Shown in pieces: positions 2,481 through 44,542 of a stretch of 50,441 nucleotides of DNA. The notes under the pieces are model-generated. The model saw nothing but the letters and a program-made list of their open reading frames with translations. It was not told the origin of the DNA and did not search any database. The stretch's first letter is position 1. The number at the start of each line of letters is the position of its first letter. The position numbers were made by a program, and so were the translations under genes. The stretch comes from a virus (taxonomy: Duplodnaviria > Caudoviricetes): positions 1 through 50,441 of IMG/VR virus record IMGVR_UViG_3300042540_000801. One strand, 5' to 3'.

Positions 2481-3371
2481 ATGAGATTGCAGCAGCTTTT
2501 TGATGACTTCTACCGGCCGCTTCGCCTGCGAGGGCGATCGGTCAATACCACGCGGTTGTATGGATGCACGATCCGGTCTTTCGCGAAGTGGCTCAAATAC
2601 GAGCCGACCATCGACGACCTGACTGATCTCGTGCTGTCGAGGTACTTGGAGCACCGGGCATCGGTCCGCAGCCCGTTCACCGCCGAGAAAGAGCGGTCGC
2701 AGTTGGTCGCGCTGTGGCGGTTTGCCTGCGACCGCGGGATCTTGAAGCAGCGGCCAGAGGTTCCGCCGTCACCGCTGCCCGAGCGGGCGCCGGTGGCGTG
2801 GTCGGTTGATGAGCTTCAGTCGCTCCTCAAGGCGGCGAGGGCGAGCCGTGGCTTTGTCGGTCCGGTGCCGATGGGCGTGTTCTTCCCGGCGTTGATTGCA
2901 GTCCTCTGGGAAACGGCGGAGCGGATCGGGGCTGTCATGCAGGCCCGATACACGGACTTCGACGGCGCGACGCTGCTTGTGCGGGCCGAGGCGAGGAAGG
3001 GCGGTAAGAGGGACCGCTTCTATCACTTGAGTCCCGAGACGTGTACGATGCTGGCTGAGGCTCACGCCCCGGGCAGGCCCGAGCTGCTGTACTGGCCGCG
3101 GTGCCAGACGAGCCTCTGGTCGAAGTTTGGCGACGTTGTGGCCCGTGCTGGCCTCGGCCACGGGAGGCGGCTGCGGTTCCATCAGCTACGGAGGACGGCG
3201 GCGAGTCATTTTGCTGCTGCTGGCGGTGATGCGGTGAAGCTGCTCGATCATTCGAGCCCGCGAATCACGCACCGCTGGTATCTGGATCGCCGTCTGACGG
3301 ACAACGGTCCTCGGCCGTGCGACCTTCTCCCGCGGATCGGACTATTGCCAGGAGGATCGCCCGCTCCCTGA
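2481..3371 (+). CDS. int: Tyrosine recombinase / phage integrase
   Basis: Catalytic R (ERIG), K (RKGGK), HQLRR, DH and terminal WY; GAGGAGG SD; only plus-strand gene. Confidence 0.9.
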   Translation: MRLQQLFDDFYRPLRLRGRSVNTTRLYGCTIRSFAKWLKYEPTIDDLTDLVLSRYLEHRASVRSPFTAEKERSQLVALWRFACDRGILKQRPEVPPSPLPERAPVAWSVDELQSLLKAARASRGFVGPVPMGVFFPALIAVLWETAERIGAVMQARYTDFDGATLLVRAEARKGGKRDRFYHLSPETCTMLAEAHAPGRPELLYWPRCQTSLWSKFGDVVARAGLGHGRRLRFHQLRRTAASHFAAAGGDAVKLLDHSSPRITHRWYLDRRLTDNGPRPCDLLPRIGLLPGGSPAP

Positions 3372-30154: not shown

Positions 30155-31319
30155 CTCCCAGAATAGAGGAACCGTTGATGCCTAACTGCGCTCGGTAAAA
30201 GGTGAACGTGCCATTTGTGATGCTATTTGTGAGTCCGGCGGTAGCCATCACAGGATCGCCATAGATTGTGAGACCGTTGCTGAACGAGCCGCCAGAAGGA
30301 ATGTACGACCGGTCGTAGAACGCGGCGCTGCCCGAGACGGTGCCGCCAGTGAAGTACGAGTTGTCGTGGAACGTCGCTTCGCCGTTGAAGGTGCCGTAGC
30401 CTTGAGAGTAGTCGTAGAACGTCGCGTTGCCATTGACGGTGGCGCTGTTTTGCGAGTAGTCATTGAATGTCGCGCTGTTAGTGACGGTGCCGCTGTACTC
30501 GTTGGTCGAATACTCATTGAATGTCGCGCTGCCGAGAGTGCCGTTGTTTGTCGCAGTGCCGTAGAATGTGGCGTGGCCGTTGACGGTGCCGGCCGAAAAG
30601 TTGTCAGCATCTATGTAAAACGTGGCGTCGCCGCTGACGGTGCCGTGGTTGCCGGTCGAACCGGTGTTGAACGTCGCGTTGTTATCGACGGTGCCGTAGT
30701 TTTTTGCATCACCGTAGAACGCGGCGATGCCCAAGACGGTGCCGTTGTTGGGGCCGTAGAACGTCGCGCTTCCGCTAACCGTGCCGTTGTTGGCTGAATT
30801 GCTGCCGTTGAACGTCGCGTTGCCAGTGACGGTGCCGGAGACGCTGTTGACCGAACCTTCGTTGAACGTCGCGTTGCCACTGACGGTGCCGTCGTTTTGC
30901 GAGACGACGTTGAACGTCGCGTTGCCACTGACGGTGCCGTCGTTTTGCCAGTTGCCGTTGAACTCCGCGTCTCCGGTGACGGTGCCGTAGTTGATCCCGT
31001 TGCCGTCAACAAAATTGGCCCGCCCGGTATATGTCAGCGTCCTTCCTGCGGCGAGATATCCCCTAACGAACTCCACAGCGCCGGTGCCGGTGACCGTGAT
31101 GTCCAGGTCGATATTCGTTTGATTCACGGTCAGATTGGCTACTGTTGGCTGCGCCCCGCTGTTGGTGCATTCAAGGCCGTAAATGCGAACGCTGTCGCTG
31201 CTCGTCGGCAGCGCTGCGGCAGCGTTTCGCGGATCGGCTTCGGGCGGGTCTGTCCACCAGTTGCCCAGAGTTTGCCAATCGGAGTCGCCGCCGCTGTTGT
31301 CAAAATAGAGAGTTGCCAT
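30147..31319 (-). CDS. Beta-helix-like repeat protein (putative spike/fibre)
   Basis: About 14 repeats of N.GTV.G.ATF(N/Y); lower GC. Confidence 0.75.
   Translation of the reverse strand: MATLYFDNSGGDSDWQTLGNWWTDPPEADPRNAAAALPTSSDSVRIYGLECTNSGAQPTVANLTVNQTNIDLDITVTGTGAVEFVRGYLAAGRTLTYTGRANFVDGNGINYGTVTGDAEFNGNWQNDGTVSGNATFNVVSQNDGTVSGNATFNEGSVNSVSGTVTGNATFNGSNSANNGTVSGSATFYGPNNGTVLGIAAFYGDAKNYGTVDNNATFNTGSTGNHGTVSGDATFYIDADNFSAGTVNGHATFYGTATNNGTLGSATFNEYSTNEYSGTVTNSATFNDYSQNSATVNGNATFYDYSQGYGTFNGEATFHDNSYFTGGTVSGSAAFYDRSYIPSGGSFSNGLTIYGDPVMATAGLTNSITNGTFTFYRAQLGINGSSILGVV
30860..30948. repeat. 41-bp exact duplication with 48-nt period in the repeat gene
   Basis: 30860..30900 equals 30908..30948. 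Confidence 0.85.
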
Positions 31320-31320
31320 G

Positions 31321-32067
31321 TTAGTACCCCATCACAAAGGCGATGATGTCCCACTTGTCCCGTCCCGCGTGATACGTCGCAGCCAGAACGTCCATCTTGT
31401 TTGCCGTCGTCGAGAACGGCAGCGGCGATGTGGCCGACGAGGGGATGACGAACTTGTTGCCCAGCGTCACCGTCCGACTGCCGGTGGCATCCTGCGTGAT
31501 CCGCCAGCGGATCGTCTTGCCATCGACGGGGTTCGTCGGATTGGCGAGCGTGACGTTGCCGGTGAGCGTGAGGTCGAAGATTTCGCCAGCCGATGCGTCG
31601 GTGGTGACGGTGGCGGCGTAGGTGAGAGCAACGATCTTCGGCAGCACACCCGCATGGAACTGGATCGGGGAGTCAACGTGAATCGTCTGCGTTAGGTTGT
31701 TGTAGACGTTCTTCAGCCGCCCGCCCTGCCAGTTGAGCTCGTAGCCGACCGCGCAGATGAGCGACAAACCGTTCGCTCCCCCTGTCGCGTTGTCGAACGA
31801 GCCGACAACGACCTGCGTGTAGTTCGGCAGCGTGATGCTGTTGAACGTCACGCTGTCGGTCGTGTTGAGGCTTTGGTCGTACGAAGAGCCGCCGCCCGAG
31901 ACAGGTACCGGGGTGCCGCTGGCATCGGCGATATAGAGCGTGGCGTCCGCGATGTTGACCGCGATCTCTCCGGGCTGCAGCTCGCCTTGCACCGGTGGCT
32001 CGCCCGAGGCGAAGGTCGAGGACGGGCGAACGCGGTCCTTGGTCGTGCGGCCAGAACGGTATGCCAT
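31321..32067 (-). CDS. Putative fibre/structural protein
   Basis: LQPGEIAVNIAD..LY N-terminus, TTDSVTF motif, QDATGSRT C-terminal domain typical of phage fibres. Confidence 0.65.
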   Translation of the reverse strand: MAYRSGRTTKDRVRPSSTFASGEPPVQGELQPGEIAVNIADATLYIADASGTPVPVSGGGSSYDQSLNTTDSVTFNSITLPNYTQVVVGSFDNATGGANGLSLICAVGYELNWQGGRLKNVYNNLTQTIHVDSPIQFHAGVLPKIVALTYAATVTTDASAGEIFDLTLTGNVTLANPTNPVDGKTIRWRITQDATGSRTVTLGNKFVIPSSATSPLPFSTTANKMDVLAATYHAGRDKWDIIAFVMGY

Positions 32068-32109
32068 GCGTGTCTCCTGCTGTTGATTGTGCGAGCGAGG
32101 TGAAGAGGG

Positions 32110-32421
32110 TCAACGAACGCGATGGGGCGGTGATTCCGGAGGACAGTTGCCGGTCGGGCAGGCCGGCTTGCCAGCCGCGCCGCAGGGGCACTTCGTGCGG
32201 TGGCCGTCAGGCTGGACGATCCACCCGGAGCCGTTGCACTGGCGGCACTTCTCGTCGGGCTTAGGGGGAGCCGGCGGGCCAGGCTGCGGCGCGGCGTCGA
32301 CGGCCAGGCTCGAGCGGGCGAGGGTGAGCGAGGCGGATGCGGTGGCCGCAGCCTGATCGACGTCCCGCGGGTCGCTCGAGAGCCAGGTCAGGAACCAAAG
32401 CAGCCAGTTCCAGAGCTTCAT
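32110..32421 (-). CDS. Small protein with CxxCxGxG motif
   Basis: Trp-rich N-terminus; CRQCNGSG...CPC. Confidence 0.6.
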   Translation of the reverse strand: MKLWNWLLWFLTWLSSDPRDVDQAAATASASLTLARSSLAVDAAPQPGPPAPPKPDEKCRQCNGSGWIVQPDGHRTKCPCGAAGKPACPTGNCPPESPPHRVR

Positions 32422-32422
32422 C

Positions 32423-32683
32423 TCACCACCCCATTCCGTGGTTGACCATGATGTTGCCGGAGTCGTCGACGTGGTGCGAGTGGACGGCCAGGCGGTCGGC
32501 GGATGCCGGTGGCGGCTCGGCGACCAGCGCGACCCAGAGGAAGGTCTTGGCGGCCTTGGCGATCCACCGCAGCACGGGGCGGTCCGGCGGGGAGAGCGGC
32601 GTGCGGTGCGAGTCCCCGGCCAGCCAGTAGCCGAGGGCGATGCAGATGGCGGCGGCGAGGACTGTGCTGCGTTCAATCTTCAT
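32423..32683 (-). CDS. Small membrane protein
   Basis: N-terminal hydrophobic helix. Confidence 0.6.
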   Translation of the reverse strand: MKIERSTVLAAAICIALGYWLAGDSHRTPLSPPDRPVLRWIAKAAKTFLWVALVAEPPPASADRLAVHSHHVDDSGNIMVNHGMGW

Positions 32684-33758
32684 GGGATGCCCTGACGCTG
32701 GACGCTGGAGGAACCGGGGAAAGCCAGTTGCCGTTGTGGAGGTCGCGCCAGCCGAAGCCGGCGACCGAGCCGACCGCGAACGAATCACGCTGGGCGAGCA
32801 TCCGCTCGACCACCGGCCGCGTGACCCAGAAGCTGCCCGAGGGCTGATCGGCTGGGAACTTGCCGACGTACTTGATCCATGAATCCCCCCAGCTATTGAG
32901 GCACAGCAGGCCGTCGCTGGGCGAGCCGTTCTTCTGGTAGCGGACCGCGACGAAGCACATCTCATGCGCCCATTGGCCCGAGGCGGCCGCGAAGCCGTGC
33001 TGATCGGTGACGCTGGCGAAGCCTTGCATGCTCGCCACGGTGACGGGAAAACCGGCTTCGATGGCGGCGGAGGCTTCAGCCCAGGTCGTGACGAGCGCGA
33101 CGTGCTGAGCCGGGTGTTTGCTGGCGATGGCGTCGAGGCGGCCGCCGTCGCCCTGACCACCGCAGCCGTAGGCGCCCCAGTTCTTGGCCCGCTGTGCGGA
33201 GTAGTGCCGGAGGTCGTGACCGCCGACTTGCTCGCGGTAGACCACGCCCCACTCGCGGACGAACTTGGCGGCGGCCGCGCCGAACGAACCATCGGACCAG
33301 CCGCCGACCGGAGAAGTCCCATCCCCGCCGCGGCCGCGGGCTTCGACACGCGAGCCACCGTAGATGGCTTCGGTGCTGGGGATGAGCGGCGGCTCGGCCA
33401 GGCGGCCCGTCTCCCAGTCGATGGCCTGGGCGATCCAGATTCCGTGCATCCATCCCCATGCCACGCAGTCGCCGATCCCCTGCCGGCCGCAGACCCACGG
33501 CGCGTTGTAGCGTCGCTGGTGCGCCTTGGCGGCGGCCCGGTAGAGGAAGGTGTCGATGCCCTTGGCCTCGCGGATCGTTTCGGCCCCGGCCTGGGCGAAG
33601 GTCGGCTTGGGGAGATCGCTGAGGAACCGCTCGACGGCGGTGGCGTCGGGCGTGTAGCCGAAGTTGGCCTCGGGGCGTGACGCCCTGCGGCCGAACGCCA
33701 GGGCGACGGCCAGCGTCAGGAGCAGCGCGGCGGCGAGGAGTTGCCAGCGGGACTTCAT
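32673..33758 (-). CDS. Papain-like (C1) cysteine peptidase with signal/anchor sequence
   Basis: Q..GDCVAWG, WAHEMC, LNSWG catalytic motifs; hydrophobic N-terminus. Confidence 0.85.
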   Translation of the reverse strand: MKSRWQLLAAALLLTLAVALAFGRRASRPEANFGYTPDATAVERFLSDLPKPTFAQAGAETIREAKGIDTFLYRAAAKAHQRRYNAPWVCGRQGIGDCVAWGWMHGIWIAQAIDWETGRLAEPPLIPSTEAIYGGSRVEARGRGGDGTSPVGGWSDGSFGAAAAKFVREWGVVYREQVGGHDLRHYSAQRAKNWGAYGCGGQGDGGRLDAIASKHPAQHVALVTTWAEASAAIEAGFPVTVASMQGFASVTDQHGFAAASGQWAHEMCFVAVRYQKNGSPSDGLLCLNSWGDSWIKYVGKFPADQPSGSFWVTRPVVERMLAQRDSFAVGSVAGFGWRDLHNGNWLSPVPPASSVRASHED

Positions 33759-34300
33759 CGGGCCGCAGCCTCCGCGGCCTTGGCGACGTCACGGTAGGCG
33801 GCGACCCAGCGGCCACGGGTCTCCGGGGTAAGAGGCCCGCCCGAGGTGCCGGCGGCGGCGTTGAGGAATTGCTCGATCGCCTGCCTCGCGCGGGGGTGCT
33901 TGTCTCCGAGGCTCTGTCCCGAGCAGGCCAGCATCCGGGTGCGGATGCGGAGCTCGTCGAAGGCCACGCCGGTCTTGATGAACGGCTCGGCCTGCTGCCC
34001 GTCCCACGCGAGCTCGCGGGCCAGTTCCCGGCAGATGGCCGCGGTGAGCAGGGCGTCGGCCGAGGCTTCGGCCCCGACGAAGGTGCCGCGGAGGTCGAGG
34101 GCTTCCGGGGCAGGAGGAGGAGCGGGAGGAGCCGGCTCTGCGGACTGGCCACGGTAGGACAGCAGCGCGGCCACGATGATGAAGGCCGCGATGTAGTGAT
34201 GCCGCTCGAGCCGGGAGGGGTCGAGGCCGGCGGCGTGTTCCTTGATCCATGGCCACGCGAGGGCCGTGGCGGCGGCGACGATGAGGACGATGGTGGTCAT
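33755..34300 (-). CDS. Membrane protein (two TM segments)
   Basis: Two hydrophobic helices, Pro linker, soluble domain. Confidence 0.65.
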   Translation of the reverse strand: MTTIVLIVAAATALAWPWIKEHAAGLDPSRLERHHYIAAFIIVAALLSYRGQSAEPAPPAPPPAPEALDLRGTFVGAEASADALLTAAICRELARELAWDGQQAEPFIKTGVAFDELRIRTRMLACSGQSLGDKHPRARQAIEQFLNAAAGTSGGPLTPETRGRWVAAYRDVAKAAEAAAR

Positions 34301-34677
34301 GCGGGCGAGGCCTGTCGGGTGAGTGGCAAGAGCGATTCGATGGCCCCGCTGGCGATGGCCAGGACAAGGGTGCGGACGGATGGCCGAATGAGGATCCAGA
34401 GCGGCCATGCGTAAGGCGGGATCGCCTTGTCGGCGACCGCGTCGAAGAGCGCCGCCGCGGCTTCGAGGACGATGGCCTTCCGCTCGGCGCCCGGGATGTC
34501 GAGCATGTCGGCGAGCCTGACGGCGAGCCGCAGCAATGAGATGAGGAGCTCGCCGAACTCCTGCCAGGTGATGCCGCCGGCCGCTGCCGACTTGGCGGTC
34601 TCGATGTAGGCGCGGATGGCCCCGGCGATCTCGGTGAAGTGACTGGCAACGGTGGTCGGGGCGAGCGTGTCCATCAT
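34297..34677 (-). CDS. Hypothetical protein, possibly holin-like
   Basis: Amphipathic/hydrophobic helices; first gene of the peptidase cluster. Confidence 0.55.
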   Translation of the reverse strand: MMDTLAPTTVASHFTEIAGAIRAYIETAKSAAAGGITWQEFGELLISLLRLAVRLADMLDIPGAERKAIVLEAAAALFDAVADKAIPPYAWPLWILIRPSVRTLVLAIASGAIESLLPLTRQASPA

Positions 34678-34734
34678 GGGGCTCCGGGGGGTGCAATTCA
34701 CGCTATCAGCGGACGGGGGGTGCCTTTGAGTGGT

Positions 34735-35115
34735 TCAGCCGCGGCTTTCGGCCCGGGCGATGAAGTCGTCGAGCGAACTTGGCTCCGGGGTGTCCGGCGG
34801 CGAGGAGAGAGTGACGGGCCGCATCTGGAAAAGCCGCGGCTTCACGACCCGCCGGTCGAGCTCGGTGGCCGCGTCCCAGGTGGCACGGATGGCCGCGGCC
34901 CGCTCGGCGATCTCGGCAGGGGTCGGATCTTTCTGCCGGAGCGGCTTCTTGATGTGCTTCCGGTCGCGACGCAGCGGGAGCGCCCACAGGTCGCGGAGCC
35001 GCACGACCTGATCTTTCGTGATGGTCCAACGGATGCAGAGGTCGGCGACTGGGATGTGGGCACACCAGTCAGCCCGAAACTCCTGCATCGAGATGGTTGC
35101 CGTGTTGCCTGCCAT
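34735..35115 (-). CDS. HTH-like protein with DPTPAEIAERAAAIRATW motif
   Basis: Motif shared with 36064..36345. Confidence 0.7.
   Translation of the reverse strand: MAGNTATISMQEFRADWCAHIPVADLCIRWTITKDQVVRLRDLWALPLRRDRKHIKKPLRQKDPTPAEIAERAAAIRATWDAATELDRRVVKPRLFQMRPVTLSSPPDTPEPSSLDDFIARAESRG
34875..34926. repeat. 52-bp direct repeat, copy 1 (copy 2 at 36096..36147)
   Basis: 50/52 identical by direct comparison. Confidence 0.9.
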
Positions 35116-36025
35116 CCGTGGCCGCCCCTTGGGGGATCCAGTTCATGACGAGCCGCTGCCCGGGGTTGAGGTACATGCTCATCCCGGTCTTGTCGTAGAT
35201 GCTGCGGTGAAAGTTGACGTGCTCGCAGTCGCCACCCGAGTAGGTTCCGGCGAAGAACGCTTCCGGCTGGTAGATCGCCATGCCGCCGAAGGCCGAGCAG
35301 CATCTGACTGGCTCGCTGCCGACGGGAGGAAACCAGCCGTGAAACCACCCCATGTCGTGCTGTTCTGTCCAGTGATTGAGGCGGAACGCCCAGGCGTCGT
35401 AGTGGATGGTGATCTTGCCGCTGGGATCGAGGTCGGACGGGTATTCGATGGTCGACACGCTGGCCAGGCCGGCCGCGTCCGCGAGCCTGTTCATCCAGGC
35501 CAGGCCGCTCATGACGCCGTGAGCGGACCATCCGCCCCAGGTGTCGAGGTCGATGACGATGATGCGGTGGCGACGGTCGCCGGCCGGCCGGTGGCTCCGC
35601 GCCCATTCCAGGCAGGCTTGCCGGTATTCGGCGAGGGCGTCGGTGCGGCGCTTCGACTTCTCCGTGGACAACTGCGGGCGGTTGTGCGTGGAGCACTGGT
35701 GTTCGACCTGCGGGCACCGCTCGCTCCAGGCCTGCAGTTCGCGCTGCGTCCCGTCGGTGCTGTCGTTTTCGTAGACGAAGGCCCGCCAGGAGCGGAACTG
35801 GTTGCCCAAGTATTCAATGCGGGCGGTGTTGATCGTGAGCCACGGCATCGTGTTGCGTGCCAGGCCGAGGATGGTGACGTCGGTATCCCTGGCGATCTCC
35901 TCGCCATCGAGGACCGCTTCCCAGTAGGCCGGGGCGCACTCGCGCGACGTGGCCGGGAGCAGGAGGTCAGGGGACCGCTTGACGACGTCTTGGTAGGTCA
36001 CCGTGTCGCGGTCGGTGGTTGTCAT
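35069..36025 (-). CDS. Glycosyltransferase (CAP59/GT69-like GT-A)
   Basis: GLARN, YENDSTDGT, LA.YR, VIDLD, YDAWA.R, SAFGG.AIY, CEH. Confidence 0.8.
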   Translation of the reverse strand: MTTTDRDTVTYQDVVKRSPDLLLPATSRECAPAYWEAVLDGEEIARDTDVTILGLARNTMPWLTINTARIEYLGNQFRSWRAFVYENDSTDGTQRELQAWSERCPQVEHQCSTHNRPQLSTEKSKRRTDALAEYRQACLEWARSHRPAGDRRHRIIVIDLDTWGGWSAHGVMSGLAWMNRLADAAGLASVSTIEYPSDLDPSGKITIHYDAWAFRLNHWTEQHDMGWFHGWFPPVGSEPVRCCSAFGGMAIYQPEAFFAGTYSGGDCEHVNFHRSIYDKTGMSMYLNPGQRLVMNWIPQGAATDGRQHGNHLDAGVSG

Positions 36026-36063
36026 GGTGTCCGTGCTGCTGGGAGTTGTGCCAGCCGCCATCG

Positions 36064-36345
36064 TCAAGGGCGTGTCAAGCGAAACCGCTCCGGCCCCCAG
36101 GTGGCGCGGATGGCTGCGGCCCGCTCGGCGATCTCGGCAGGGGTCGGGTCGTTGGCCTGGCGCTCGAGCGCGTCGGCCCGTGGCTTGTGGCGCGGCGGCC
36201 GCCGCTTGAGGCCGTGCCGCTTGACGGCCGCCGTGAACGCCGACGGCGTGCACCCGAGGATGGCGGGGAGGTCGGAGCGACGGAGCGTATGGTCGTGCCA
36301 GATGCGGAAGAGCTTGGGGACGTCGATGCCATCGTCGTGCTGCAT
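36064..36345 (-). CDS. HTH-like protein with DPTPAEIAERAAAIRATW motif
   Basis: Paralogue of 34735..35115. Confidence 0.7.
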   Translation of the reverse strand: MQHDDGIDVPKLFRIWHDHTLRRSDLPAILGCTPSAFTAAVKRHGLKRRPPRHKPRADALERQANDPTPAEIAERAAAIRATWGPERFRLTRP

Positions 36346-36440
36346 GGAGGTTCCTGTCCTGTCTGGGTGCGGAGCGAGGTGGCCATGCCTGAGCGAGCCC
36401 GCCCCGAGTCGAGGCGGGCCCGCCAGGCGATGGTGCTGGG

Positions 36441-36719
36441 TCACCGGTAGCGGATGACCGCGAACCACTGGCGACGGGCCGGCGAGTAGGCGACGCCTTC
36501 CTCGACGATGACCCGCTTGCCGAAGAAGCAGCAGTTCCGCCGCGCGGATTCGGGGGTGGAGCCGCAGCCGATCCCCTCGTACTGGCCGCACCCGGAGTGC
36601 ACGAGCACGCCGCGACGGGCGATGATCGTGGCGTGATCCTGGGCCGTGACCACGACAGTCGGGGCGGCTTCAACCGTGAAGCAGGCCAGGGCGACAAGGC
36701 AGGCGAGAAGCAAACGCAT
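36441..36719 (-). CDS. Small secreted protein, minimal CAP/SCP-like pattern
   Basis: Signal peptide; AQDHA..IA.RG.L.HSG...YEGIG; GGAGG SD. Confidence 0.65.
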   Translation of the reverse strand: MRLLLACLVALACFTVEAAPTVVVTAQDHATIIARRGVLVHSGCGQYEGIGCGSTPESARRNCCFFGKRVIVEEGVAYSPARRQWFAVIRYR

Positions 36720-36902
36720 GGCAATCCTCCGTGAACTCCCGGTATCCGCCGGGACTCACGCAGGATGGCGAGCGTGTCAAGCGTCCACGCCTACCACTCG
36801 CCGGCTTCGCCGCTTTTCGCGGGCCGTTTCACGCCGTTCGGCCGCGAAACGCAGGTCGGACCCGGATTAGGCTGCGAACTGGCCGCCTAATTCTGGTTCT
36901 GC

Positions 36903-37142
36903 TCAATCCAATGTGGCCGCGCCGACGTTGACGGAGCGCCCGTGCCATGCCTCGCGCTCGCGCATAGAACAGTTCCACGCAACAAGGCAGGAGGTGAGGT
37001 GCCTTGCAAGGATGAAGTCGGGCGTGCCGCTCTCGTTCTCCATGCTGTGCCTATTGAGAAGGTCGGCAAGTTCTTCTGTGAACCCTTTAGGTGCGCCAGC
37101 AGAACAAGCCGATGCAACAGACCGCTCGTCAGTGTCGCTCAT
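36903..37142 (-). CDS. Cassette 1 hypothetical protein
   Basis: GGAGG SD and ATG inside attC1; LLNRHSMENESGTPDFILA. Confidence 0.8.
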   Translation of the reverse strand: MSDTDERSVASACSAGAPKGFTEELADLLNRHSMENESGTPDFILARHLTSCLVAWNCSMREREAWHGRSVNVGAATLD

Positions 37143-37188
37143 AGTCGCCGCCTCCTTCGTTCGCGGCCGTTGATCTTCCGTGTTCTGC
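37099..37188 (+). other. attC site 1 (intact, 90 bp)
   Basis: R'' GCAGAAC, 5-nt spacer, L'' GAT[G]CAAC, bulged A, L' GTTGATC, 6-nt spacer, R' GTTCTGC. Confidence 0.85.
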
Positions 37189-37491
37189 CTACTTCAAAAG
37201 CCGCTCAAGAATCTCCTTGACCTTGTCCAAGTCCTCTTGCTTCTTGCGGTCGCGGCTTTCGGCAAACATCTGGTCAACAATCGCAACGGCTCGCGGTCGA
37301 GCAGCGGTCAGTTCCTCGTCTGTGACGATGCCTTTCTGGAGAAGGGCCACCAGTAGCGTGGCGTGGTTCGTGGCTTGCGCAGCACTCGCGTCGTTTGTTG
37401 ATGCCGCGAGTTCTTTGAACGCTTGAATAATCAACTCTCCAGGCAAGGCAGAACCACGCGATGGAATGGACTGCTCATTCTCGTTCGTCAT
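37189..37491 (-). CDS. Cassette 2 hypothetical protein
   Basis: AGGAG SD and ATG inside attC2; stop abuts R' of attC1. Confidence 0.8.
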   Translation of the reverse strand: MTNENEQSIPSRGSALPGELIIQAFKELAASTNDASAAQATNHATLLVALLQKGIVTDEELTAARPRAVAIVDQMFAESRDRKKQEDLDKVKEILERLLK

Positions 37492-37533
37492 GGTTGCTCC
37501 TGCGTTCGATGCCGCTGATCGCTGGCGTTCTCA
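37448..37533 (+). other. attC site 2 (86 bp, L boxes mismatched)
   Basis: GCAGAAC-cacgc-GATGGAAT ... GCTGATC-gctggc-GTTCTCA. Confidence 0.7.
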
Positions 37534-37965
37534 CTTCAGTCGCTCCAGCAGCGACCAGAGTATTGCGGAGTCTGCGCCAGCAACCCGATACATCGCGCGA
37601 AATATCACCTCCCGCTCCTCGTCGGTGAGCGCGGGGGCAAAATACAACGGTGCGAGCGGCAGTGGTCGGTTGGTTTCGCCAAAAAGGCACTCTCTTGCGA
37701 GACTCATAGCCTCGTCCTTCTGGTGGTCCGCGAATGCCTCATAGACCGACAGATCGCCCGGCGGGCCGGCAGTCACCGCCCACGCCACCGGCTTAGAACC
37801 AGCGGATGCAAGAGACGGCTCGTTTGCGTCTTGTGTGTTGTCAGTGTTCATGTCTCGCCGCTCCTCGCCGGTGAGCCGCAGGCGTGCGATCTCTGACTCC
37901 AGTTGCGCGATCTTGATGCGGTCGGCGGCAATCGCGTGCCGCAGCCATTCGGCGTCGTCAGCCAT
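37531..37965 (-). CDS. Cassette 3 hypothetical protein (internal start at 37851), apparently fused to an upstream fragment
   Basis: SD sequences at both 37965 and 37851 starts; SLASAGS encoded by attC3 left arm. Confidence 0.65.
   Translation of the reverse strand: MADDAEWLRHAIAADRIKIAQLESEIARLRLTGEERRDMNTDNTQDANEPSLASAGSKPVAWAVTAGPPGDLSVYEAFADHQKDEAMSLARECLFGETNRPLPLAPLYFAPALTDEEREVIFRAMYRVAGADSAILWSLLERLK
37793..37862 (+). other. attC site 3 (right arm truncated)
   Basis: TTAGAAC-cagcg-GATGCAAG-AGACGGC ... GCCGCTC, then no L'/R'. Confidence 0.6.
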
Positions 37966-38007
37966 TCGTGCCTCCTGCCCACGCGATGCAGCGGACCCGC
38001 GATGCCG

Positions 38008-38388
38008 TCACTCCTGGTCGAAGAGCCCGGCCGCGCTCGGGAGATCGGCGTCGTCGGCCGGACGGAGCCAGGCGGCGCCCTTCCAGAAGACGTGCCAGAC
38101 CTCGTGCAGCGCACGGCCGTACCAGTCGAAGACGCCGAAGGACGAGTCCACCTTGCTCTTGAAGTTGCCGTAGTCGATCTCGCTGCCGAGCATGGCGATG
38201 ATCTCCGCGAGCCGGGAGCGGCAGACGTGGATGCGGTAGGGGTAGTCGCGTTCCGGGGTTGTGTGGATGGGGACGCCGGGCTCCAGGGCGCGGAGGTGCG
38301 TGATGTCCCGCGAGCGGATGAAGAACGAATTGCGGTCGGCCGTGTCCTGCACGATCGAGTAGAAGCCGCGTTTGGTACAGAGCCACAT
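38008..38388 (-). CDS. Hypothetical protein
   Basis: MW..T..GFYSIV...DYPYR...IDY.NFK; GAGG SD. Confidence 0.8.
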   Translation of the reverse strand: MWLCTKRGFYSIVQDTADRNSFFIRSRDITHLRALEPGVPIHTTPERDYPYRIHVCRSRLAEIIAMLGSEIDYGNFKSKVDSSFGVFDWYGRALHEVWHVFWKGAAWLRPADDADLPSAAGLFDQE

Positions 38389-38399
38389 GGGTCACCTCG

Positions 38400-39509
38400 T
38401 CAGGCTGCGATGGGGGAAATGACGCAGAGCCGGTCCTCGCAGCGGAGGACGACATTCGACTCGGCGCTCTTTGCTTCGATGTGAACCATCTCGAGCGACT
38501 CGACGGTCTCGAGGAACTGGGCCACGTACTCGGGGGCGAGGGTGATCTGGCACGGCGTGCCGCACTCGCTGATGTCGCAGGCGACCTTCGACTCGCCGGC
38601 CTCGGGGCTCTTGCCCGTGAGGAGGATGCCTTCGCTGGTGATGGCGTAGGCCACGCCGCGGCTCGTCTGGCTGGTCGTGATCCCGGCCGCCCGGGTCGCG
38701 GCCAGGAGGTGGCCGGCCTGCACGCGGGTCGGGGCGTCCGACTCCTCGGGGATGGCCTTCCGCCAGGCTGGGAAGGCCGAGGCGAGGCGGGCCGCCGTGA
38801 GCGTCGTCGTGGCGTTGGTGGCGACGATGGAGGCCTTGCTGGAGGCGAGCTGCACCGCTTCGAAGCCGGCGGCGACGGCGATGGAGTGGATGGCGTTCGC
38901 CGCCCGCACCGTGATGAGCACCTCGCAGTCGTCGACGGCCTGGTCGATCTCGATGCGGTAGGCGTGGAGCCGCCGCCCGTCGGTGGCCACGAACGTGACC
39001 ACGCCGTCGGTGACGTTGATGAGCACGCCGCCGCCACGCTTGTCGGCCGCGGGAATGACGGTCTCCAGGCAGCGGGCGAGCTGGTCGCCGGGAACCCGAG
39101 CGACCGGCAGCAGGCGGCCGGGGGCGCTGGCGGGGAAGTCCGAGACGGCGCACGTCGGGAGGACCCACTTGCCGGTCTTGCTCTTCACGGTGCAAGCCGC
39201 CTTGCCCTGCTCGATGCGGATGTCGCCGTCGCGGTCGCAGGCCCCGGCGATGCGGGTGAGTTTGTCGCCGGGGAGGAGGACGGTGATGCCGGACTCTTCG
39301 GCTCCGTGGAGCTTGGTCTCGATGCGGAGCTCGCCGTCCGTGGCCGTCAGCATCCCGCCCGCGATGAGGACGTGCTGCATGGCTGGGATCGAGGTTCGGC
39401 CGGCGACCGCCGGGGCGACCATGGCGAGCGCCCGCTTGAGTTCAGTCACCTCGAGGTCGAGGCGTGTGCCAGGCGTTCCGCGGGATGCACCGTTTGCTGC
39501 AGCTGTCAT
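38400..39509 (-). CDS. dnaN: DNA polymerase III beta sliding clamp-like protein
   Basis: LTATDGE, DFP, VATDGRRL, FPAWRKAIP, VISPI; ~370 aa three-domain size. Confidence 0.85.
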   Translation of the reverse strand: MTAAANGASRGTPGTRLDLEVTELKRALAMVAPAVAGRTSIPAMQHVLIAGGMLTATDGELRIETKLHGAEESGITVLLPGDKLTRIAGACDRDGDIRIEQGKAACTVKSKTGKWVLPTCAVSDFPASAPGRLLPVARVPGDQLARCLETVIPAADKRGGGVLINVTDGVVTFVATDGRRLHAYRIEIDQAVDDCEVLITVRAANAIHSIAVAAGFEAVQLASSKASIVATNATTTLTAARLASAFPAWRKAIPEESDAPTRVQAGHLLAATRAAGITTSQTSRGVAYAITSEGILLTGKSPEAGESKVACDISECGTPCQITLAPEYVAQFLETVESLEMVHIEAKSAESNVVLRCEDRLCVISPIAA

Positions 39510-39624
39510 TCTCTCTCTCCTTGGTTGCGAGGTTCCGTCCAACGCAGATTCCAGCGACGAACGTGAGCAGGGTGAGAATCACGCCGATGCTCACGCAGAC
39601 GACTTGCTCGATGCTGATGCTCAT
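39442..39624 (-). CDS. Small membrane protein
   Basis: Single TM helix; ATGA overlap. Confidence 0.55.
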   Translation of the reverse strand: MSISIEQVVCVSIGVILTLLTFVAGICVGRNLATKERENDSCSKRCIPRNAWHTPRPRGD

Positions 39625-39884
39625 GTTTCCATCGCGATGCTCACCGCGCCTCCGTGGCCGCTTGTGTCGATGACCTCGGCCCGGGTGATGCCGTTGAGGG
39701 TGTTCATCAGTTTCTCGGCGAGCACGACGGGATCATCGTCTTCGTCGGCCAGCGTGGTGGCGCAGAGGGCGATGTTGTCGGCGGTCTCTTCACAGACCTC
39801 GCACGGCCCGTCGTTCGCCTCGACCCAGAGCCGGATCGTCAGCCGTCCGACACGCAGCGTCCTGATGATTTCGTAGCACCGCAT
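39621..39884 (-). CDS. Hypothetical protein
   Basis: 87 aa in operon. Confidence 0.6.
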   Translation of the reverse strand: MRCYEIIRTLRVGRLTIRLWVEANDGPCEVCEETADNIALCATTLADEDDDPVVLAEKLMNTLNGITRAEVIDTSGHGGAVSIAMET

Positions 39885-40143
39885 TCGCTTCTTCCCTTGA
39901 GGTGACGACGGCGCACCGTGCGCCGCCTTGTTGCTCGATCTCTCGCATCCGCAGTTCCTGGAGCTTCGTCGGCTTCTTGCCGGGTTGCTTCACCTCGAGG
40001 AAGACGGCGCGGCCGCCGTTGAGGCAGAGCAGGTCGGGGACACCCGAGAGCTGGTGAGGCCCGCCGTGGAGCTTCATGCTCCACCAGCCGAGTTGTTTGG
40101 CTGAGCGAACAATCGAGGCGACGATGGTGGACTCGCGAGGCAC
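39790..40143 (-). CDS. VRR-NUC domain nuclease
   Basis: RES.I, GVPDL, FLEVK.PG..P..LQ. Confidence 0.88.
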   Translation of the reverse strand: MPRESTIVASIVRSAKQLGWWSMKLHGGPHQLSGVPDLLCLNGGRAVFLEVKQPGKKPTKLQELRMREIEQQGGARCAVVTSREEANAVLRNHQDAACRTADDPALGRGERRAVRGL

Positions 40144-40248
40144 TCCGTTGCCCTCCGTGGCGGTTGGATACCCGAACAATGGCGTCTGAAAAACTGCAGG
40201 GGATTCCAGGGGCGGGGGGAGCATACGCATGGCCGATCTGTTTGCCTA

Positions 40249-40453
40249 GTGCCTTGCCGGCAAGGACTTCCGCGGTGAGGTGCTAGCACTGCTGACGGGC
40301 GTTGCCCCGGCGCGGGTCGCTTGGGCGACGACCCGCGCCGGAGGCTGCTGCCGTCCGGGGTGCAGCGGCGAGATGATCCGCCGCCCCCGGTTGTTGCCGT
40401 TACTCGCCACCAGCAACTGGGCGACCGATGCGGCTGGACGATGCAGCAGCCGC
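40249..40453. ncRNA. Candidate structured RNA / multi-hairpin element
   Basis: Six consecutive inverted repeats in an intergenic gap, including a perfect 13-bp stem. Confidence 0.35.
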
Positions 40454-40479
40454 TTGCGGCTCACGGTGGAGCACGGGAC

Positions 40480-40836
40480 TCACGCGGACGATGCCTTGAG
40501 GTAGGACGCGACCCGCGGAGCGAGCGCCTTGTTGTTTGCCAGCATCCATTCGAGGTATTTCCTGCCGTTGGGCTGGGCGTCCGCTTCGGCCAGGGTCATG
40601 CCTTGGAACCGCCCGTACTTGAGCCGAAACTCCTCGGCCGCCTCGGCCGGCCGCGGGACCGGCTCGGGAGCCGCCTCCGGTGTAGCCGGGGCGTCAATGC
40701 GGTCGCGGTTCCCGCAGTAGATGCACCAGAGCAGCCAGGTACGGTGACCCCGCTTGTCGGTGAAGTCGTCGAGCATGTCGTGGGCGTCGCAACCGCACCG
40801 CGAGCAGACGGCGATGCTGTGCAGGATGGTGCTCAT
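40480..40836 (-). CDS. Zinc-ribbon protein with DUF3820-like C-terminus
   Basis: CxxC..CxxC; YGRFQGMTL.E.....YLEW. Confidence 0.65.
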   Translation of the reverse strand: MSTILHSIAVCSRCGCDAHDMLDDFTDKRGHRTWLLWCIYCGNRDRIDAPATPEAAPEPVPRPAEAAEEFRLKYGRFQGMTLAEADAQPNGRKYLEWMLANNKALAPRVASYLKASSA

Positions 40837-42488
40837 AGGATCTCCATGCGCGGCGTCTTCTGCCGCCCCTCGTTGATGACGTGCAGGTGGTGACGGGTCC
40901 GAGTCACCGCTACGTAGGCGATGCGGTGCTCTTCGTCGTGCTGGGTCTGGTCTTCCATCCCGTTCTCGATCTGGCCGCTCGTGGTGGTGAGGACGGCCAC
41001 GTTGTCGGCTTCGAAGCCTTTGACGCTGTGGATCGTGCCGACGCGGATCTTTGGCTCGGCGGCCAGGTCGGGACCGTGCCGTAGAGCTTGCTCGCGCCAC
41101 TCGAGCCCGCGGTCGACGAGCCCGACCCACTTCCCGGCTCCGATGCGGTCGCAGAGTTCCGAGGTCGCTCCGATGGCCGGGAGGTCGCTGGGGAAGATGA
41201 GGTCCCACTGGTCGGCCGCGTCCCCGTTCTTCCACCGTGACTTCGTGCCGCGGGCCAGCATCGGGACGCGGTCCCGGCCCGAGGAGGCCGGCAGGAGCTC
41301 GAGCGCCCGGCTCCACTGCTGGCCGGTGATCGGCTCGCCGTGCTCGAGCGCCCAGAGGGCCGCCAGACCGACCGAGCGGGCCGTGCGGCCGTCAGGGGAG
41401 GTTGTCCACTTGGCCGGCTTGTGGGCGGCGTTGAGGGCCGCCATGAGCCTCCCGGCTTGGTAGTTCGTCCGGGCGATGAAGAGCCAGTTGTCGCCGGGGT
41501 TGGCGAGGCTGGCCGCGTCCTCGATGGAGTTGAGCTCCGACACCGACCCGTCGTGCGGAGCCGGCTCGACGCCACGGTCGAAGTAGCCCCGCTTCATCCG
41601 CCGCAGACACTGCTCGCCGAGGCTGATGATCGGGGCGGGGCAGCGGTACGAGCGCGGCATGATCCGTTCCTTGTCCGCGTGCCAGGCCATGAAGTTGTCC
41701 GCGTTGGAGCCGGCGAACCCGTAGATGGCTTGGAACGGATCGCCGACGATGTAGCACCAGCGGACCGATGGAGCGGTGACGAGCCGCTTGCAGGCGGCGT
41801 CCATGAGGGCGCTGGCGTCCTGCTGCTCGTCGAAGAGCCAGGCATCGACTTCCGGCAGCTCTCCCTCCGGGGTTCTGACGTACGGCACCCCGGTGGTGTC
41901 GACGGCGAACCCGGCGAACCGGAGCAGGAGGTCGGAGAAGTCGACGCGGTCGTCGAGTCGCTTGGCGGCTTCGTAGCGGTTGCATACCCGAACAATCGAG
42001 TCCAGTGGAGGCACGTTGTCGTCGATGCTCTTGAGCCGCTTCACGATTGGCTCGAGCGGCTGGAGCGTGGCACGGCAGAGTTCCCAGCAGTTGAGGGCGG
42101 CGGCGGCCGCCGGGTCGCCGAGGAACTTCTGTCGCCCCGTGTCGTCGTCGATGGAGGTTTCGATCCGGCACTGGAGGGCGTTGCAGAGCCATTCGATGTC
42201 GGCCTGCGTGTTGCCGATCATCTGCCCGCCGGAGATCCCGAGGCAGCGGTAGGCGACGCTGTGGACGGTGCGGAACCAGCCGCGGCTCGTGAGGAGGTCG
42301 GGGCTGACGTTCCAGGCTTTGCTGGCCCGTTCGACGGCCTCGGCCCGGGCGGCGCGGGTGAAGGACGCGAACCCCAGCCGCAGGGGATCCCGGCCGAGGT
42401 GGTCGAGGGCGCTGTCCATGATGCGGAGCAGTTCGGAGGTCTTGCCGGAGCCGGCCGAGCCGACGAGCCGGGCGATCTGGAGGGTCAT
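40833..42488 (-). CDS. UvrD-like SF1 helicase
   Basis: GSAGSGKT, DEQQD, GDPFQAIY, SYRCP, ARTN, TIHSVKGFE, YVAVTR. Confidence 0.92.
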   Translation of the reverse strand: MTLQIARLVGSAGSGKTSELLRIMDSALDHLGRDPLRLGFASFTRAARAEAVERASKAWNVSPDLLTSRGWFRTVHSVAYRCLGISGGQMIGNTQADIEWLCNALQCRIETSIDDDTGRQKFLGDPAAAAALNCWELCRATLQPLEPIVKRLKSIDDNVPPLDSIVRVCNRYEAAKRLDDRVDFSDLLLRFAGFAVDTTGVPYVRTPEGELPEVDAWLFDEQQDASALMDAACKRLVTAPSVRWCYIVGDPFQAIYGFAGSNADNFMAWHADKERIMPRSYRCPAPIISLGEQCLRRMKRGYFDRGVEPAPHDGSVSELNSIEDAASLANPGDNWLFIARTNYQAGRLMAALNAAHKPAKWTTSPDGRTARSVGLAALWALEHGEPITGQQWSRALELLPASSGRDRVPMLARGTKSRWKNGDAADQWDLIFPSDLPAIGATSELCDRIGAGKWVGLVDRGLEWREQALRHGPDLAAEPKIRVGTIHSVKGFEADNVAVLTTTSGQIENGMEDQTQHDEEHRIAYVAVTRTRHHLHVINEGRQKTPRMEIL

Positions 42489-42494
42489 GGGGAT

Positions 42495-42705
42495 GGCTTT
42501 TTGGGGTTAGGATGGGGGGTTTTCGGGCCGCTTACGGAGCGTTCCAAGAAAAAAAGTCCGGCAAAACGGGTTTTCCCGGGGGTTTTCCCGGCACGGTAAG
42601 CCGTGGCGCCGCTTGGACTTGTGCGCCGTGTCGGGAAAACCGGACGCTTGCGAAGATTGAAAACGGCTGTTTCACTTTCGGGGGGCATATAGGTAGGGGT
42701 TTTCG
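42495..42705. repeat. Iteron-like GGGTTTTC(CCGG) repeats; candidate replication origin
   Basis: Copies at 42517, 42568, 42580, 42697 and inverted at 42632; A-tracts; between prim-pol and helicase. Confidence 0.55.
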
Positions 42706-42707
42706 CG

Positions 42708-44456
42708 TCAGGCTGGAGGCGGCTCGGGGGGCGTGCCGCCGTCTGCTTGCTGGGCCTCCTGCTCGGCCTCTGAGGCCATCCGCTCGAGGGCGGCGAACTC
42801 TTGCCGGGTCCAGACCACGTAGGTCTTCCTGAGGCCGCTGAGGTGGCGGTATTCGCGGTGGACGAAGTCCTTGGCTTCGAGCTGGCCGAGGAGCCGCCGC
42901 TTGAGGCTCAGCCGCTCGCCTTCGAGGACGCGGTGCTGCCGCTCGACGTCTTCCCAGACCTTGTTCCAGGCGAACCACAGCGTCCCATCGGCCCGCCAGG
43001 CGGCGCGGCCGTTGGGGTCCGGGAGATCGTCGTCTGTTGGCTGGGCGGCCTGACTGAGCCGGTCGTAGAGCCAGCCGGCCAGGGTGACGTAGCGGAGGCT
43101 CGACGCCCCCGGCCACTCGTGCTCGACGTTGTCGAGGAGCTTGGCCTTCACGCCACGGGCGATCCGCCGCTTGGTCTTCCCGGCCCGGGGATCGGCCACC
43201 TTGTAGCCGCCGTCCCAGATCTTCTTCCACTTGCCGGGGAGGTCGTCGAGCATGATGACGCCGGTGGCCGCGAGCACCTGCGCGGCCATGCGGGCGGCGC
43301 TGCGGAACTGGTCGACGGTGAGCGTGATGTTGCCCAGCCCGTTGGCCGTGTACTTCTTCCAGGCCGGGACGTGGAGCCGGTACTCGAGGGGATCGGAGTG
43401 GACCACGGTGAGCTGCCACTCCCCCGGCCCCCACTCCGGGGACGCGTCGGAGCCGGGGTCGAGCGGGGCGAACGAGAGTCCCGTGTCGGTGAAGACGTTG
43501 ACCCATTTTTTGTTGCTGCCGGCCGGCTTCTTGCGGGGCTTCTTCTTCGATTCCTTGAGGGCCTCGTCCGACTGCTCGATCGCGGCCTGGGTGTCCATGC
43601 CTTGCGCCCGCGACTTGCGGACGTAGCCCACGGCGCTGCGGAAGACGGAGGCCACTTCGTCGTCGCCCAGCGGCGGCTTGCACTTCGTCAGGTTGACGGC
43701 TTGGATGATGGCCAAGAGGTCTTGCTGCTCGAGCGGGTTGTCGATGTCGCTGGCCTTGAACCCCATCGACACGGCGAACCGGTGGAGGGATTCGTTGCGG
43801 CCGCCCTCCCCGGCGCCTTGGTGGATGATGGTGCGGGCCGGCTTCGACGGCTTGCCGGTGAACAGTGCCCGCCCGCCGTCGTCGTTCCAGAGGAGGTTGA
43901 CGAGCGCCTCGGGGAGCGGCTGGAGCTCGACGTCGTCGGGGGATAGCCCGTCGATCCACTGGTACCGGACGCCGGTGTGGTGCATCGACGGCGGCAGGAC
44001 CGATTGAGCGGCCGCGCCGCCGTTGCCGATCCGGACCTCGATGCCCATGACCTTCTTCACCGCCGTTGCCGGGAGGCCTTCGTCCCAGCGGAAGAGGCGG
44101 TGCGGGCCGCGGCCGGCCGAGTAGGTCGGCGTCCAGATTTCACCGAGCCCGAGGGATGCCCACGCGGACTTGGCCGCGTCGTCGTCGAGCTCGACGTCGA
44201 TGACGCCGGAGAGCGGCCCGAGTAGGAGGCCGACGTTGGCCGGGTTCGGACGGTCGAACCAGCCGAGGATCGTGTCTTCGTCCTTGGCGTAGTGCAGTTG
44301 CCACGCTGTCTCGACGGGGTGCTTGCCCGGCGAACTGCAGTCCTTGCCTTTCCAGCACGTGGCCGTGCCGTGATCGTTCACGCCGCAGAGCTCGACCAAC
44401 TTCCAACCTCGTTGGAAGTAGCCGAGCGCCATGTTCACGCCGTTGATGGTCGCCAT
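42708..44456 (-). CDS. Bifunctional primase-polymerase with PriCT-1-like domain
   Basis: PGKHP, NVGLLLG, IDVE.D, GRGPH, VLPPS.H.TG..Y.W, EGGRN, C.PPL.D.EV. Confidence 0.88.
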   Translation of the reverse strand: MATINGVNMALGYFQRGWKLVELCGVNDHGTATCWKGKDCSSPGKHPVETAWQLHYAKDEDTILGWFDRPNPANVGLLLGPLSGVIDVELDDDAAKSAWASLGLGEIWTPTYSAGRGPHRLFRWDEGLPATAVKKVMGIEVRIGNGGAAAQSVLPPSMHHTGVRYQWIDGLSPDDVELQPLPEALVNLLWNDDGGRALFTGKPSKPARTIIHQGAGEGGRNESLHRFAVSMGFKASDIDNPLEQQDLLAIIQAVNLTKCKPPLGDDEVASVFRSAVGYVRKSRAQGMDTQAAIEQSDEALKESKKKPRKKPAGSNKKWVNVFTDTGLSFAPLDPGSDASPEWGPGEWQLTVVHSDPLEYRLHVPAWKKYTANGLGNITLTVDQFRSAARMAAQVLAATGVIMLDDLPGKWKKIWDGGYKVADPRAGKTKRRIARGVKAKLLDNVEHEWPGASSLRYVTLAGWLYDRLSQAAQPTDDDLPDPNGRAAWRADGTLWFAWNKVWEDVERQHRVLEGERLSLKRRLLGQLEAKDFVHREYRHLSGLRKTYVVWTRQEFAALERMASEAEQEAQQADGGTPPEPPPA

Positions 44457-44491
44457 TGTCCGTCTCGCTTGGTGGTGGTGAATGAGAGAAA

Positions 44492-44523
44492 GCCGGGGGC
44501 GCGGATCCATCCGCGCCCCCGGC
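44492..44523 (-). terminator. Intrinsic terminator-like hairpin
   Basis: Perfect 15-bp inverted repeat followed by TTTCTCTC on minus. Confidence 0.6.
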
Positions 44524-44542
44524 ACACGTGGACGTCAGCAAG

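Follow-up and report, generated by a model that had tools for sequence, protein, structure and literature searches.

A phage array of attC-type gene cassettes, probably recombined by an integron integrase of the host

How can a phage that has no integron integrase carry, in its accessory-gene region, what looks like a run of integron gene cassettes? The question is raised by positions 36896 to 37881 of the IMG/VR virus record IMGVR_UViG_3300042540_000801 (Duplodnaviria; Caudoviricetes), whose entire 50,441 bases are the window analyzed here; the record is 97% complete (CheckV), has a G+C content of 66% and carries nearly all of its genes on the minus strand. A sequence-only reading had described an attC array at this place, with one canonical site and two degraded copies, and had proposed that the phage acquires and shuffles accessory genes by means of a host integron integrase (IntI) acting in trans. 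We come to a closely related view, to which we give a probability of roughly three in four: this is a phage array of integron attC cassettes, recombined by host IntI in trans. The array itself is read from the DNA, while the action of host IntI on the phage DNA is what we infer.

The best site, attC1 (37099..37188, minus strand; 90 nt), is intact and bears out the geometry first described for it, including the extra base and the second bulge; all coordinates in the sequence-only reading agree with the DNA. Its plus strand reads GCAGAAC, 5 nt, GATGCAAC (whose position 4 is an extra G), 50 nt of middle part, GTTGATC, 6 nt and GTTCTGC; all 7 of 7 L pairs form, the extra base falls at position 5 of 8 on the gene-sense strand, and the second bulge lies six pairs deeper in the stem. 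The gene-sense (minus) strand is the bottom strand of the site, and the middle part supplies the cassette 1 gene (36903..37142, minus strand; 79 aa) with its ribosome-binding site, its ATG and about 12 codons; residues 1 to ~17 of the protein are encoded within attC1. A search with this 79-aa protein led to the viral locus L010, where a nearly identical 90-nt element stands before a different gene and a 49-nt version, with the same boxes and no start codon, stands before the next gene. A pattern scan of IMG/VR then gave at least 120 stretches; a family-specific expression picked out 126 distinct elements among the fetched viral loci, and a covariance model gave 153 matches (E <=1e-4) in 52 of 100 fetched IMG/VR loci, on a single strand per locus throughout, the largest array (L065) having 15 sites in 4.8 kb.

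On the gene-sense strand an element of this family runs from xxxxAAC and 6 nt through a first arm of 7 nt (GATCAGC in most), a variable part and a second arm of 8 nt (GCTGCATC in most, its fifth base unpaired) to 5 nt and GTTxxxx. In every element found the spacer is 6 nt long on the AAC arm and 5 nt long on its partner. By length the variable part falls into three classes (9-10, 15-16 and 45-52 nt); in the longest it either forms a stem of its own or supplies the next gene with a ribosome-binding site, its ATG and 12-16 codons. Among the 64 long elements aligned, neither the AAC nor the GTT triplet varies (64/64); both are present in attC1 and attC2 of the window, and attC3 retains one box. 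The arms covary by type (GATCAGC/GCTGCATC, GATCAAC/GTTGCATC, GATCAGG/CCTGCATC, GATCACC/GGTGCATC and ATTGAGC/GCTCCAAT), and the six stem pairs past the L box, which played no part in element selection, are ~99% paired and show many compensatory changes (at one of them, for example, CG 25, GC 18, AU 13, UA 7). The covariation score was reached by 0 of 500 shuffles, slid registers drop to 26-44% paired, and column 69 of the alignment has a T bulge, which is six pairs away from the first extra base and whose flanking pairs are 99% paired. As Nivina et al. (2016, PMC5027507) describe it in their account of the site, AAC lies in R' of the recombined attC bottom strand, and the arm facing it bears the extra bases near L''; the first of these is usually G and the last a conserved T, with a 6-bp stem between, and the spacers are 5-6 nt long. 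The match to this description, together with the compensatory changes, identifies the elements as attC sites, as far as predicted structure can do so.

The two other sites in the window, first described as degraded copies, are indeed not intact, and each can be specified further. The first, attC2 (37448..37533, minus strand; 86 nt, including the start of the cassette 2 gene), is a chimera in which a left arm GATCAGC stands opposite a right arm ATTCCATC of the GATGAAT type (4 of 7 L pairs plus one wobble), the two being joined where the types share their ribosome-binding region; the viral locus L042 has this hybrid too, so it was inherited. The second, attC3 (37793..37881, minus strand), is a half site that retains the right arm, the 5-nt spacer, the box TTAGAAC/GTTCTAA and the start-codon part, while the left box, spacer and left arm are gone. 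In place of that left arm an in-frame fragment of 38 codons (37852..37965, minus strand) is fused upstream of the cassette 3 start, probably as a deletion scar; it has the C-terminal sequence LTGEERRD, a motif frequent in cassette genes of this family. As a separate observation, otherwise dissimilar cassette proteins (this fragment, and many in L065 and L010) have in common the motif L-T-D-E-E-R-E-A-I or one near it, and those that do often end in L-E-R-x-K; the motif may be a common small domain or a recombination scar.

With the family covariance model attC1 scores 83.8 bits (as a member of the training set) and its opposite strand only 8.6 bits; attC2 (49.4 bits, E 8.8e-10) and attC3 (33.5 bits, E 7e-6) lie outside the training set. 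A fourth match, at 43065-43127 (20.3 bits, E 0.013), is inside a gene and without boxes and was taken as chance. [quoted passage not shown]

The units, 286 and 345 bp long as first reported, hold one small gene each, and every gene in the window array starts with a similar leader of ~16 codons after a similar ribosome-binding region. Residues 21-75 of the 79-aa protein resemble a widespread phage protein of unknown function found in Mycobacterium, Arthrobacter and Rhizobium phages (phrog_18819, E 2.4e-12 over residues 23-75); the phage-protein matches start at residues 21-23, right past the attC-encoded leader, and the leader is therefore an add-on. The cassette 2 gene (37189..37491, minus strand; 100 aa, function unknown) has phrog_24582 (E 3.9e-4) as its sole match, and the cassette 3 gene (37531..37851, minus strand), which encodes 106 aa from an ATG within attC3, gives a protein 51% identical to that of an L065 cassette gene carrying the same leader. 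A Pfam search of the three window cassette genes gave zero matches.

Are these units cassettes in the sense of having been mobile? At the outer end of the array a terminal core GTTCTGC (36896..36902, plus strand) adjoins the stop of the 79-aa gene and marks the junction with the phage backbone, with the G-to-TT exchange point between 36896 and 36897 and no hairpin on its backbone side; it is complementary to the inverse core GCAGAAC at 37099-37105. The sequence-only reading had noted for each inverse core a match to the core with which its own cassette starts (8 bp, 9 bp and 6 of 7 bp), which we confirm and which extends to the family. We compared the four variable bases beside the GTT of one element with those beside the AAC of the next element, that is, the pair flanking one gene: such gene-flanking boxes are complementary at 4/4 bases in 100 of 126 pairs and at 3/4 in 17 more, as against full complementarity between the two boxes of a single element in 29 of 180, the level of a random pool (15.9%). 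The window's own pair is 4/4 complementary by sequence; in the 126-pair count it is entered out of register, as one of the four worst rows. Gene-flanking complementarity of this kind is the trace left by cassettes passing through a circular form. Comparison of relatives, which had been suggested as a check, adds a direct case: the L042 array ends in TGAGAAC followed by backbone, and L030 has at that point three extra cassettes (929 nt), then TGAGAAC and the same backbone, so that the indel is bounded by the 7-nt box only. On this sequence evidence the elements bound gene cassettes.

Where would an enzyme for such sites come from? A scan of bacterial genomes gave 42 stretches, with full elements in eight, all of them contigs of metagenome-assembled genomes (MAGs) and mostly labelled Planctomycetota. 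Four of five element-bearing MAGs have an IntI above the TIGR02249 cut-off (389-444 bits vs 265), as against none of 14 control genomes, all of which match the IntI model weakly through Xer proteins. In 5/5 host IntI loci a family element adjoins intI, its top strand reading away from the gene. Two host arrays, in different Planctomycetota MAGs (L144, 821-1046; L176, 1312-1500), end in xxxxAAC, a bare box, to which is joined a conserved stretch of ~60 nt, presumably attI, that lies between the last box and the 3' end of intI; intI thus points towards the array. This layout has been described for some non-proteobacterial integrons. The junction with the presumed attI puts the exchange point between AA and C and confirms the strand assignment made from geometry. 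A sample of 151 Planctomycetota genomes contains 19 with model matches and 28 with IntI (above the cut-off in 27), and 10 are in both sets; IntI is thus present in 10/19 genomes with matches vs 18/132 without (odds ratio 7.0, Fisher p 3e-4), and matches adjoin intI on six contigs, including an array of at least 18 sites. Judged by sequence, then, the phage sites belong to the attC family that adjoins intI and attI in Planctomycetota integrons, and Planctomycetes are the likely hosts of this phage. One host array of at least 18 attCs, L184 (G046:C8:43519-46607), is very homogeneous, with boxes GCCCAAC and GTTGGGC, and its G+C of 0.345 is well under that of the other loci.

One host locus, L144, carries signs of traffic between phage and host. 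The cassette that touches its attI is a DUF551 gene (46.7 bits) in the phage-like orientation, and from its position it is probably the latest capture. The DUF551 domain is typical of phages. The two L144 attCs are 96-98% identical to attCs of several viral loci, whereas the phage attCs form subtypes of their own that are 75-78% identical to ordinary host attCs; the join to attI has the 7-nt box alone in common, which makes an assembly chimera unlikely.

The mechanism that we propose starts from the layout of the unit. Each is a cassette whose gene-sense strand runs from C through a spacer of 6 nt, a left arm of 7 nt, a variable middle and a right arm of 8 nt (one base extra), followed by a spacer of 5 nt, GTTxxxx, the gene body, a stop codon and xxxxAA; as this strand has the geometry of an attC bottom strand, the genes are inverted relative to ordinary integron cassettes. 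In an integron-bearing host, most likely during lysogeny, host IntI would fold the phage sites from single-stranded DNA and exchange strands at the point between AA and C (G and TT on the other strand), so that cassettes could be excised, inserted and reordered within a phage, between phages, and between a phage and the host integron.

The phage also has a recombinase of its own, and the hairpins might be recombined by that enzyme rather than by host IntI. The window encodes a single tyrosine recombinase (2481..3371, plus strand; 296 aa; PF00589, 36.6 bits), and among 16 phage records with arrays 11 have an ordinary PF00589 gene (5/5 of those at least 90% complete), which suggests temperate phages and keeps a phage-borne enzyme as a minor rival. 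We think it quite unlikely to be the one at work. The phage recombinases are short, ordinary integrases: the window's enzyme has Xer-like best NCBIfam matches (38-40 bits vs cut-offs of 220-330), no match to the integron-integrase model TIGR02249 at E up to 0.01, and 23.5 bits against host IntI through the generic catalytic motif only. As the sequence-only reading had it, there is no integron integrase in the 50,441-base record, and we found none in 29 related records either, where 0 of 29 array-bearing viral records match the IntI model, even weakly, at E up to 1e-3. Five of the 16 array-bearing records lack a tyrosine recombinase altogether, though all five are incomplete, and the same sites adjoin intI and attI in host genomes. 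Recognition of folded attC sites is tied to a domain specific to IntI. With host IntI preferred on these grounds, the proposed shuffling of cassettes in trans gains the cassette-bounded indel and the host attC family; the action of the host enzyme itself is the part that stays conditional.

Could the arrays instead be relics, in which one piece of a host integron entered an ancestral phage and all later variation was homologous or illegitimate, with no site-specific exchange in phage DNA? Homologous exchange within attC bodies does occur, as the attC2 chimera, joined in the ribosome-binding region and also found in L042, makes plain; attC3 looks like a deletion scar; and the L065 array ends in a stretch resembling host attI. 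In that stretch (L065 5415-5445, backbone past the last cassette) 22/30 ungapped positions, counted by eye, match the presumed attI of L144 and L176, the likeness covering the first 7 bases past AAC and a GTATAGC motif, so that some phage arrays may carry an attI remnant. Against relics speaks the placement of breaks, which lie 0-4 nt from the AAC and GTT triplets rather than scattered over the conserved arms: in pairs that share the upstream gene identity stops 0-3 nt past AAC in 15/17, and in pairs that share the downstream gene the break falls 2-4 nt before GTT in 14/18 (these pairs are not independent, and the pattern is seen in at least 6 gene families). The three-cassette indel of L030 and L042 is bounded by the box alone, and the genes carried are of phage type, all of them inverted with respect to host cassettes. 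The L065 array also sits at the same genomic place as that of the window, with a small 'PKLFRxWH' gene and a glycosyltransferase-like gene downstream that are 39% and 42% identical to their window counterparts; attCs at least 90% identical between phages whose backbone proteins are ~40% identical point to horizontal movement of the elements. We regard relics as an unlikely account of the family as a whole.

The start codons within the sites suggest yet another explanation, that the repeats are expression modules only (a ribosome-binding site with a leader, or an RNA hairpin for translation or processing) with no role in recombination. The hairpin would indeed enclose the start region of the mRNA, and in 54 of 71 leader-type elements with an in-frame ATG the frame that starts in the attC extends to within 30 nt of the next box. 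We find it very improbable that this is all they are. The short forms, which lack a ribosome-binding site and a start codon, still keep boxes, arms and bulges; arm and box positions that are coding in one copy can be non-coding in another, which puts their conservation at the DNA level; and neither the gene-flanking complementarity nor the intI/attI context is explained by expression. An added effect on expression is possible. Not every leader opens a long gene: in leader-type attCs of L065 (250-336), L094, L047 and L066 the frame stops after 16-30 codons and the real gene follows downstream in another frame, so that these leaders are short upstream reading frames.

The orientation of the cassettes departs from the canonical one, in which the gene lies on the attC top strand with its attC 3': all three genes of the window are encoded by the strand whose geometry is that of an attC bottom strand, their attC being 5', whereas the host cassettes examined in L170 are on the top strand. 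A test of gene strand by stop-free frames was set aside as uninformative in high-GC DNA (54 vs 31 by strand, 24 neither, n=109 cassettes), and the frames that begin within attCs (54 of 71, above) took its place.

Several observations weigh against recombination by host IntI in trans, and the first group concerns the exchange point. In ordinary cassettes the attC body should travel with one neighbouring gene, a linkage that we had to reject: bodies are at least 90% alike in just 4/18 pairs with the same downstream gene and a different upstream one, and in 1/17 pairs with only the upstream gene in common. The canonical single exchange point thus covers only the breaks after AAC, and the attC body is unlinked on both sides. 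The breaks before GTT could come from exchange of the top strand too, or from recombination in a few shared bases; both are possible, and exchange of the top strand at low rates is described for some attCs in PMC5027507 (Nivina). Details of the sites are also off the norm. The short forms, at 49 nt, are under the published range of 57-141 bp (attC1, 90, and attC2, 86, are inside it); the first extra base is C, as against the usual G; and the window cores (GTTCTGC, GTTCTGC and GTTCTCA) break the RYYYAAC/GTTRRRY consensus with C and T at purine positions, a deviation already pointed out for GTTCT. The commonest family cores are GTTCTCA and GTTCTGT, and the host attCs that adjoin intI are likewise off consensus (for example GTTCGGC and GTTCTCC); the box sequence itself is, in the treatment given by PMC5027507, unimportant in attC.

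The remaining points concern the window and the methods. Only attC1 of the three window sites is structurally intact, and a geometry scan (AAC, 6 nt, a 7-nt arm, a loop, an 8-nt arm with one skipped base, 5 nt and GTT, all seven arm pairs formed) finds 1 perfect site in the window vs a mean of 1.03 and a maximum of 3 in 30 Markov-shuffled windows, so that geometry in the window is at chance level and the case rests on relatives. Metagenome contig ends at 37529 and 37531 run into other sequence after GTT, and may stem from variants of this phage or from relatives of it. The covariance model was built from this family itself, its 64 training elements including five rows from MAG contigs, one of them adjoining intI, with the ordinary host-type attCs outside the training set; and the MAG links depend on binning. 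Two other measures were dropped as evidence. Folding, suggested as a check with the sequence-only reading, does not single out attC1, whose energy is ordinary against shuffles (z -0.84 and -0.94), and over three junctions and both strands z ranges from -0.94 to +1.0; GTTCTGC occurs 9 times in the window vs 7.8 expected. With one intact, one chimeric and one half site, and an array end at 36896 that has no likeness to host attI, the window array is best seen as a decaying member of an active family, and probably a largely frozen and nearly immobile one.

The wider setting is that of a phage probably from lake water or freshwater and probably temperate. Megablast of window positions 30000-45000 against 50,697 phage records gave zero matches at the DNA level. 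The array has a G+C of 0.555-0.605 across 36900-37699, against 0.645-0.765 in its flanks, in line with the lower GC first reported, and its three small minus-strand genes, head to tail, close an operon that also encodes a sliding-clamp-like gene. Just 3' of the last cassette gene an inverted repeat (36860..36897, minus strand; 16-nt arms, 6 nt apart) is terminator-like and marks the operon end. Parts of 36400-38500 are present in contigs of 24 listed public runs (23 studies), mostly lake water or freshwater metagenomes, four of which contain at least half of the sampled words from that stretch, one of these four being possibly the sample of origin; contigs from four other lake or freshwater metagenomes (Logan) that map to 35800-39200 are short and broken at attCs. 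Further along, two paralogous small genes (34735-35115 and 36064-36591, both minus strand) lie on either side of the glycosyltransferase-like gene (35069-36100) and contain nearly the same stretch, DPTPAEIAERAAAIRATW; in L065 a single gene of this kind occupies the same place, 39% identical. Outside the attC arrays, the near-identical viral contigs L039 (~6024-6038) and L093 (~2701-3225) differ by a ~538-nt insertion with a 14-nt overlap.

How much of this is new? The kind of element, a phage CALIN, is already published, according to the text of Qi et al. (2023, PMC9892861), which reports 17 CALINs, each of at least 2 sites, in 10,705 NCBI phage genomes, with IntI1 recombining 5/6 tested phage attCs. 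Our phages resemble those in having attC-bounded cassette arrays without IntI and in placing phages within cassette traffic. They differ, as far as that text shows, in forming one homogeneous attC family that dozens of uncultivated phages share, the longest array having 15 sites; in having genes on the attC bottom strand that often start inside the attC; and in matching the integrons of the likely host phylum, where the text of PMC9892861 mentions neither Planctomycetes nor metagenomic viral contigs. Integrons in Planctomycetota were noted by Cury et al. (2016, PMC4889954). The phage arrays are like these sedentary chromosomal integrons in arm motifs, spacers, bulges and middle-part length, in the complementarity of cassette-flanking boxes and in an exchange point as at the attI junction, and unlike them (TIGR02249-type IntI plus attI plus array) in that the phage has no intI and the window no attI. 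A route for the first cassette into a phage or prophage genome, seeding a CALIN, is offered by insertion at attG, short GWT genome sites used by IntI1, IntI2 and IntI3 in E. coli (Loot et al., 10.1101/2022.09.11.507474); the attG experiments set out there concern neither phage arrays nor this attC family. A full-text literature search, judged by its listings, gave no report of attC arrays in Planctomycetes phages or of start codons inside attCs, a result on which the supplementary CALIN tables of PMC9892861 may bear. What is new is the scale of the family, the match to host attCs, the inverted cassettes with attC-borne start codons, and exchange at both boxes.

A different kind of module is also worth comparison. 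Arbiol and colleagues reportedly described, in 2010, 'mobile regulatory cassettes' (PeSLs, each an early promoter plus a stem-loop) in hyperplastic regions of T4-type phages, and these are said to have been proposed to shuffle small accessory genes as modules by homologous recombination. Like the present elements they would be short repeats with a stem-loop, set between small accessory genes in a variable part of the phage genome. Unlike the present elements, PeSLs are said to lack both AAC/GTT boxes and extra-base geometry and to be unconnected with any host integrase.

A bolder reading, which we put forward tentatively and consider possible rather than probable, is that a freshwater phage lineage took over the integron of its Planctomycete host as an engine of accessory-gene turnover and adapted the sites to this use. 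Cassettes would have been inverted so as to read with the phage operon, and the variable loop of many attCs would provide a ribosome-binding site, a start codon and a fixed-frame leader that always runs through the right arm and box as ..A-S-x-G-S. Exchange would take place at both boxes, that is, on both DNA strands, and would let hairpin modules and gene bodies assort independently and in frame, while cassettes would flow both ways between phage arrays and the host integron.

Integrons are chiefly known as platforms on which bacteria capture genes, and phage attC clusters, first reported in 2023, were limited to a few rare cases. In the present phages, a whole uncultivated group, the variable region is built from cassettes of the attC type of the likely host phylum, and in one host integron the capture site is occupied by a phage-type cassette. 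The start codons within attCs and the exchange at both boxes probe how strict the choice of strand is in integron recombination. If host IntI does work on phage DNA, integrons and phages would draw on one cassette pool; accessory genes, possibly including counter-defence genes, would be diversified by site-specific exchange, beyond homologous mosaicism; and the attC type would be usable to predict the hosts of uncultivated phages.

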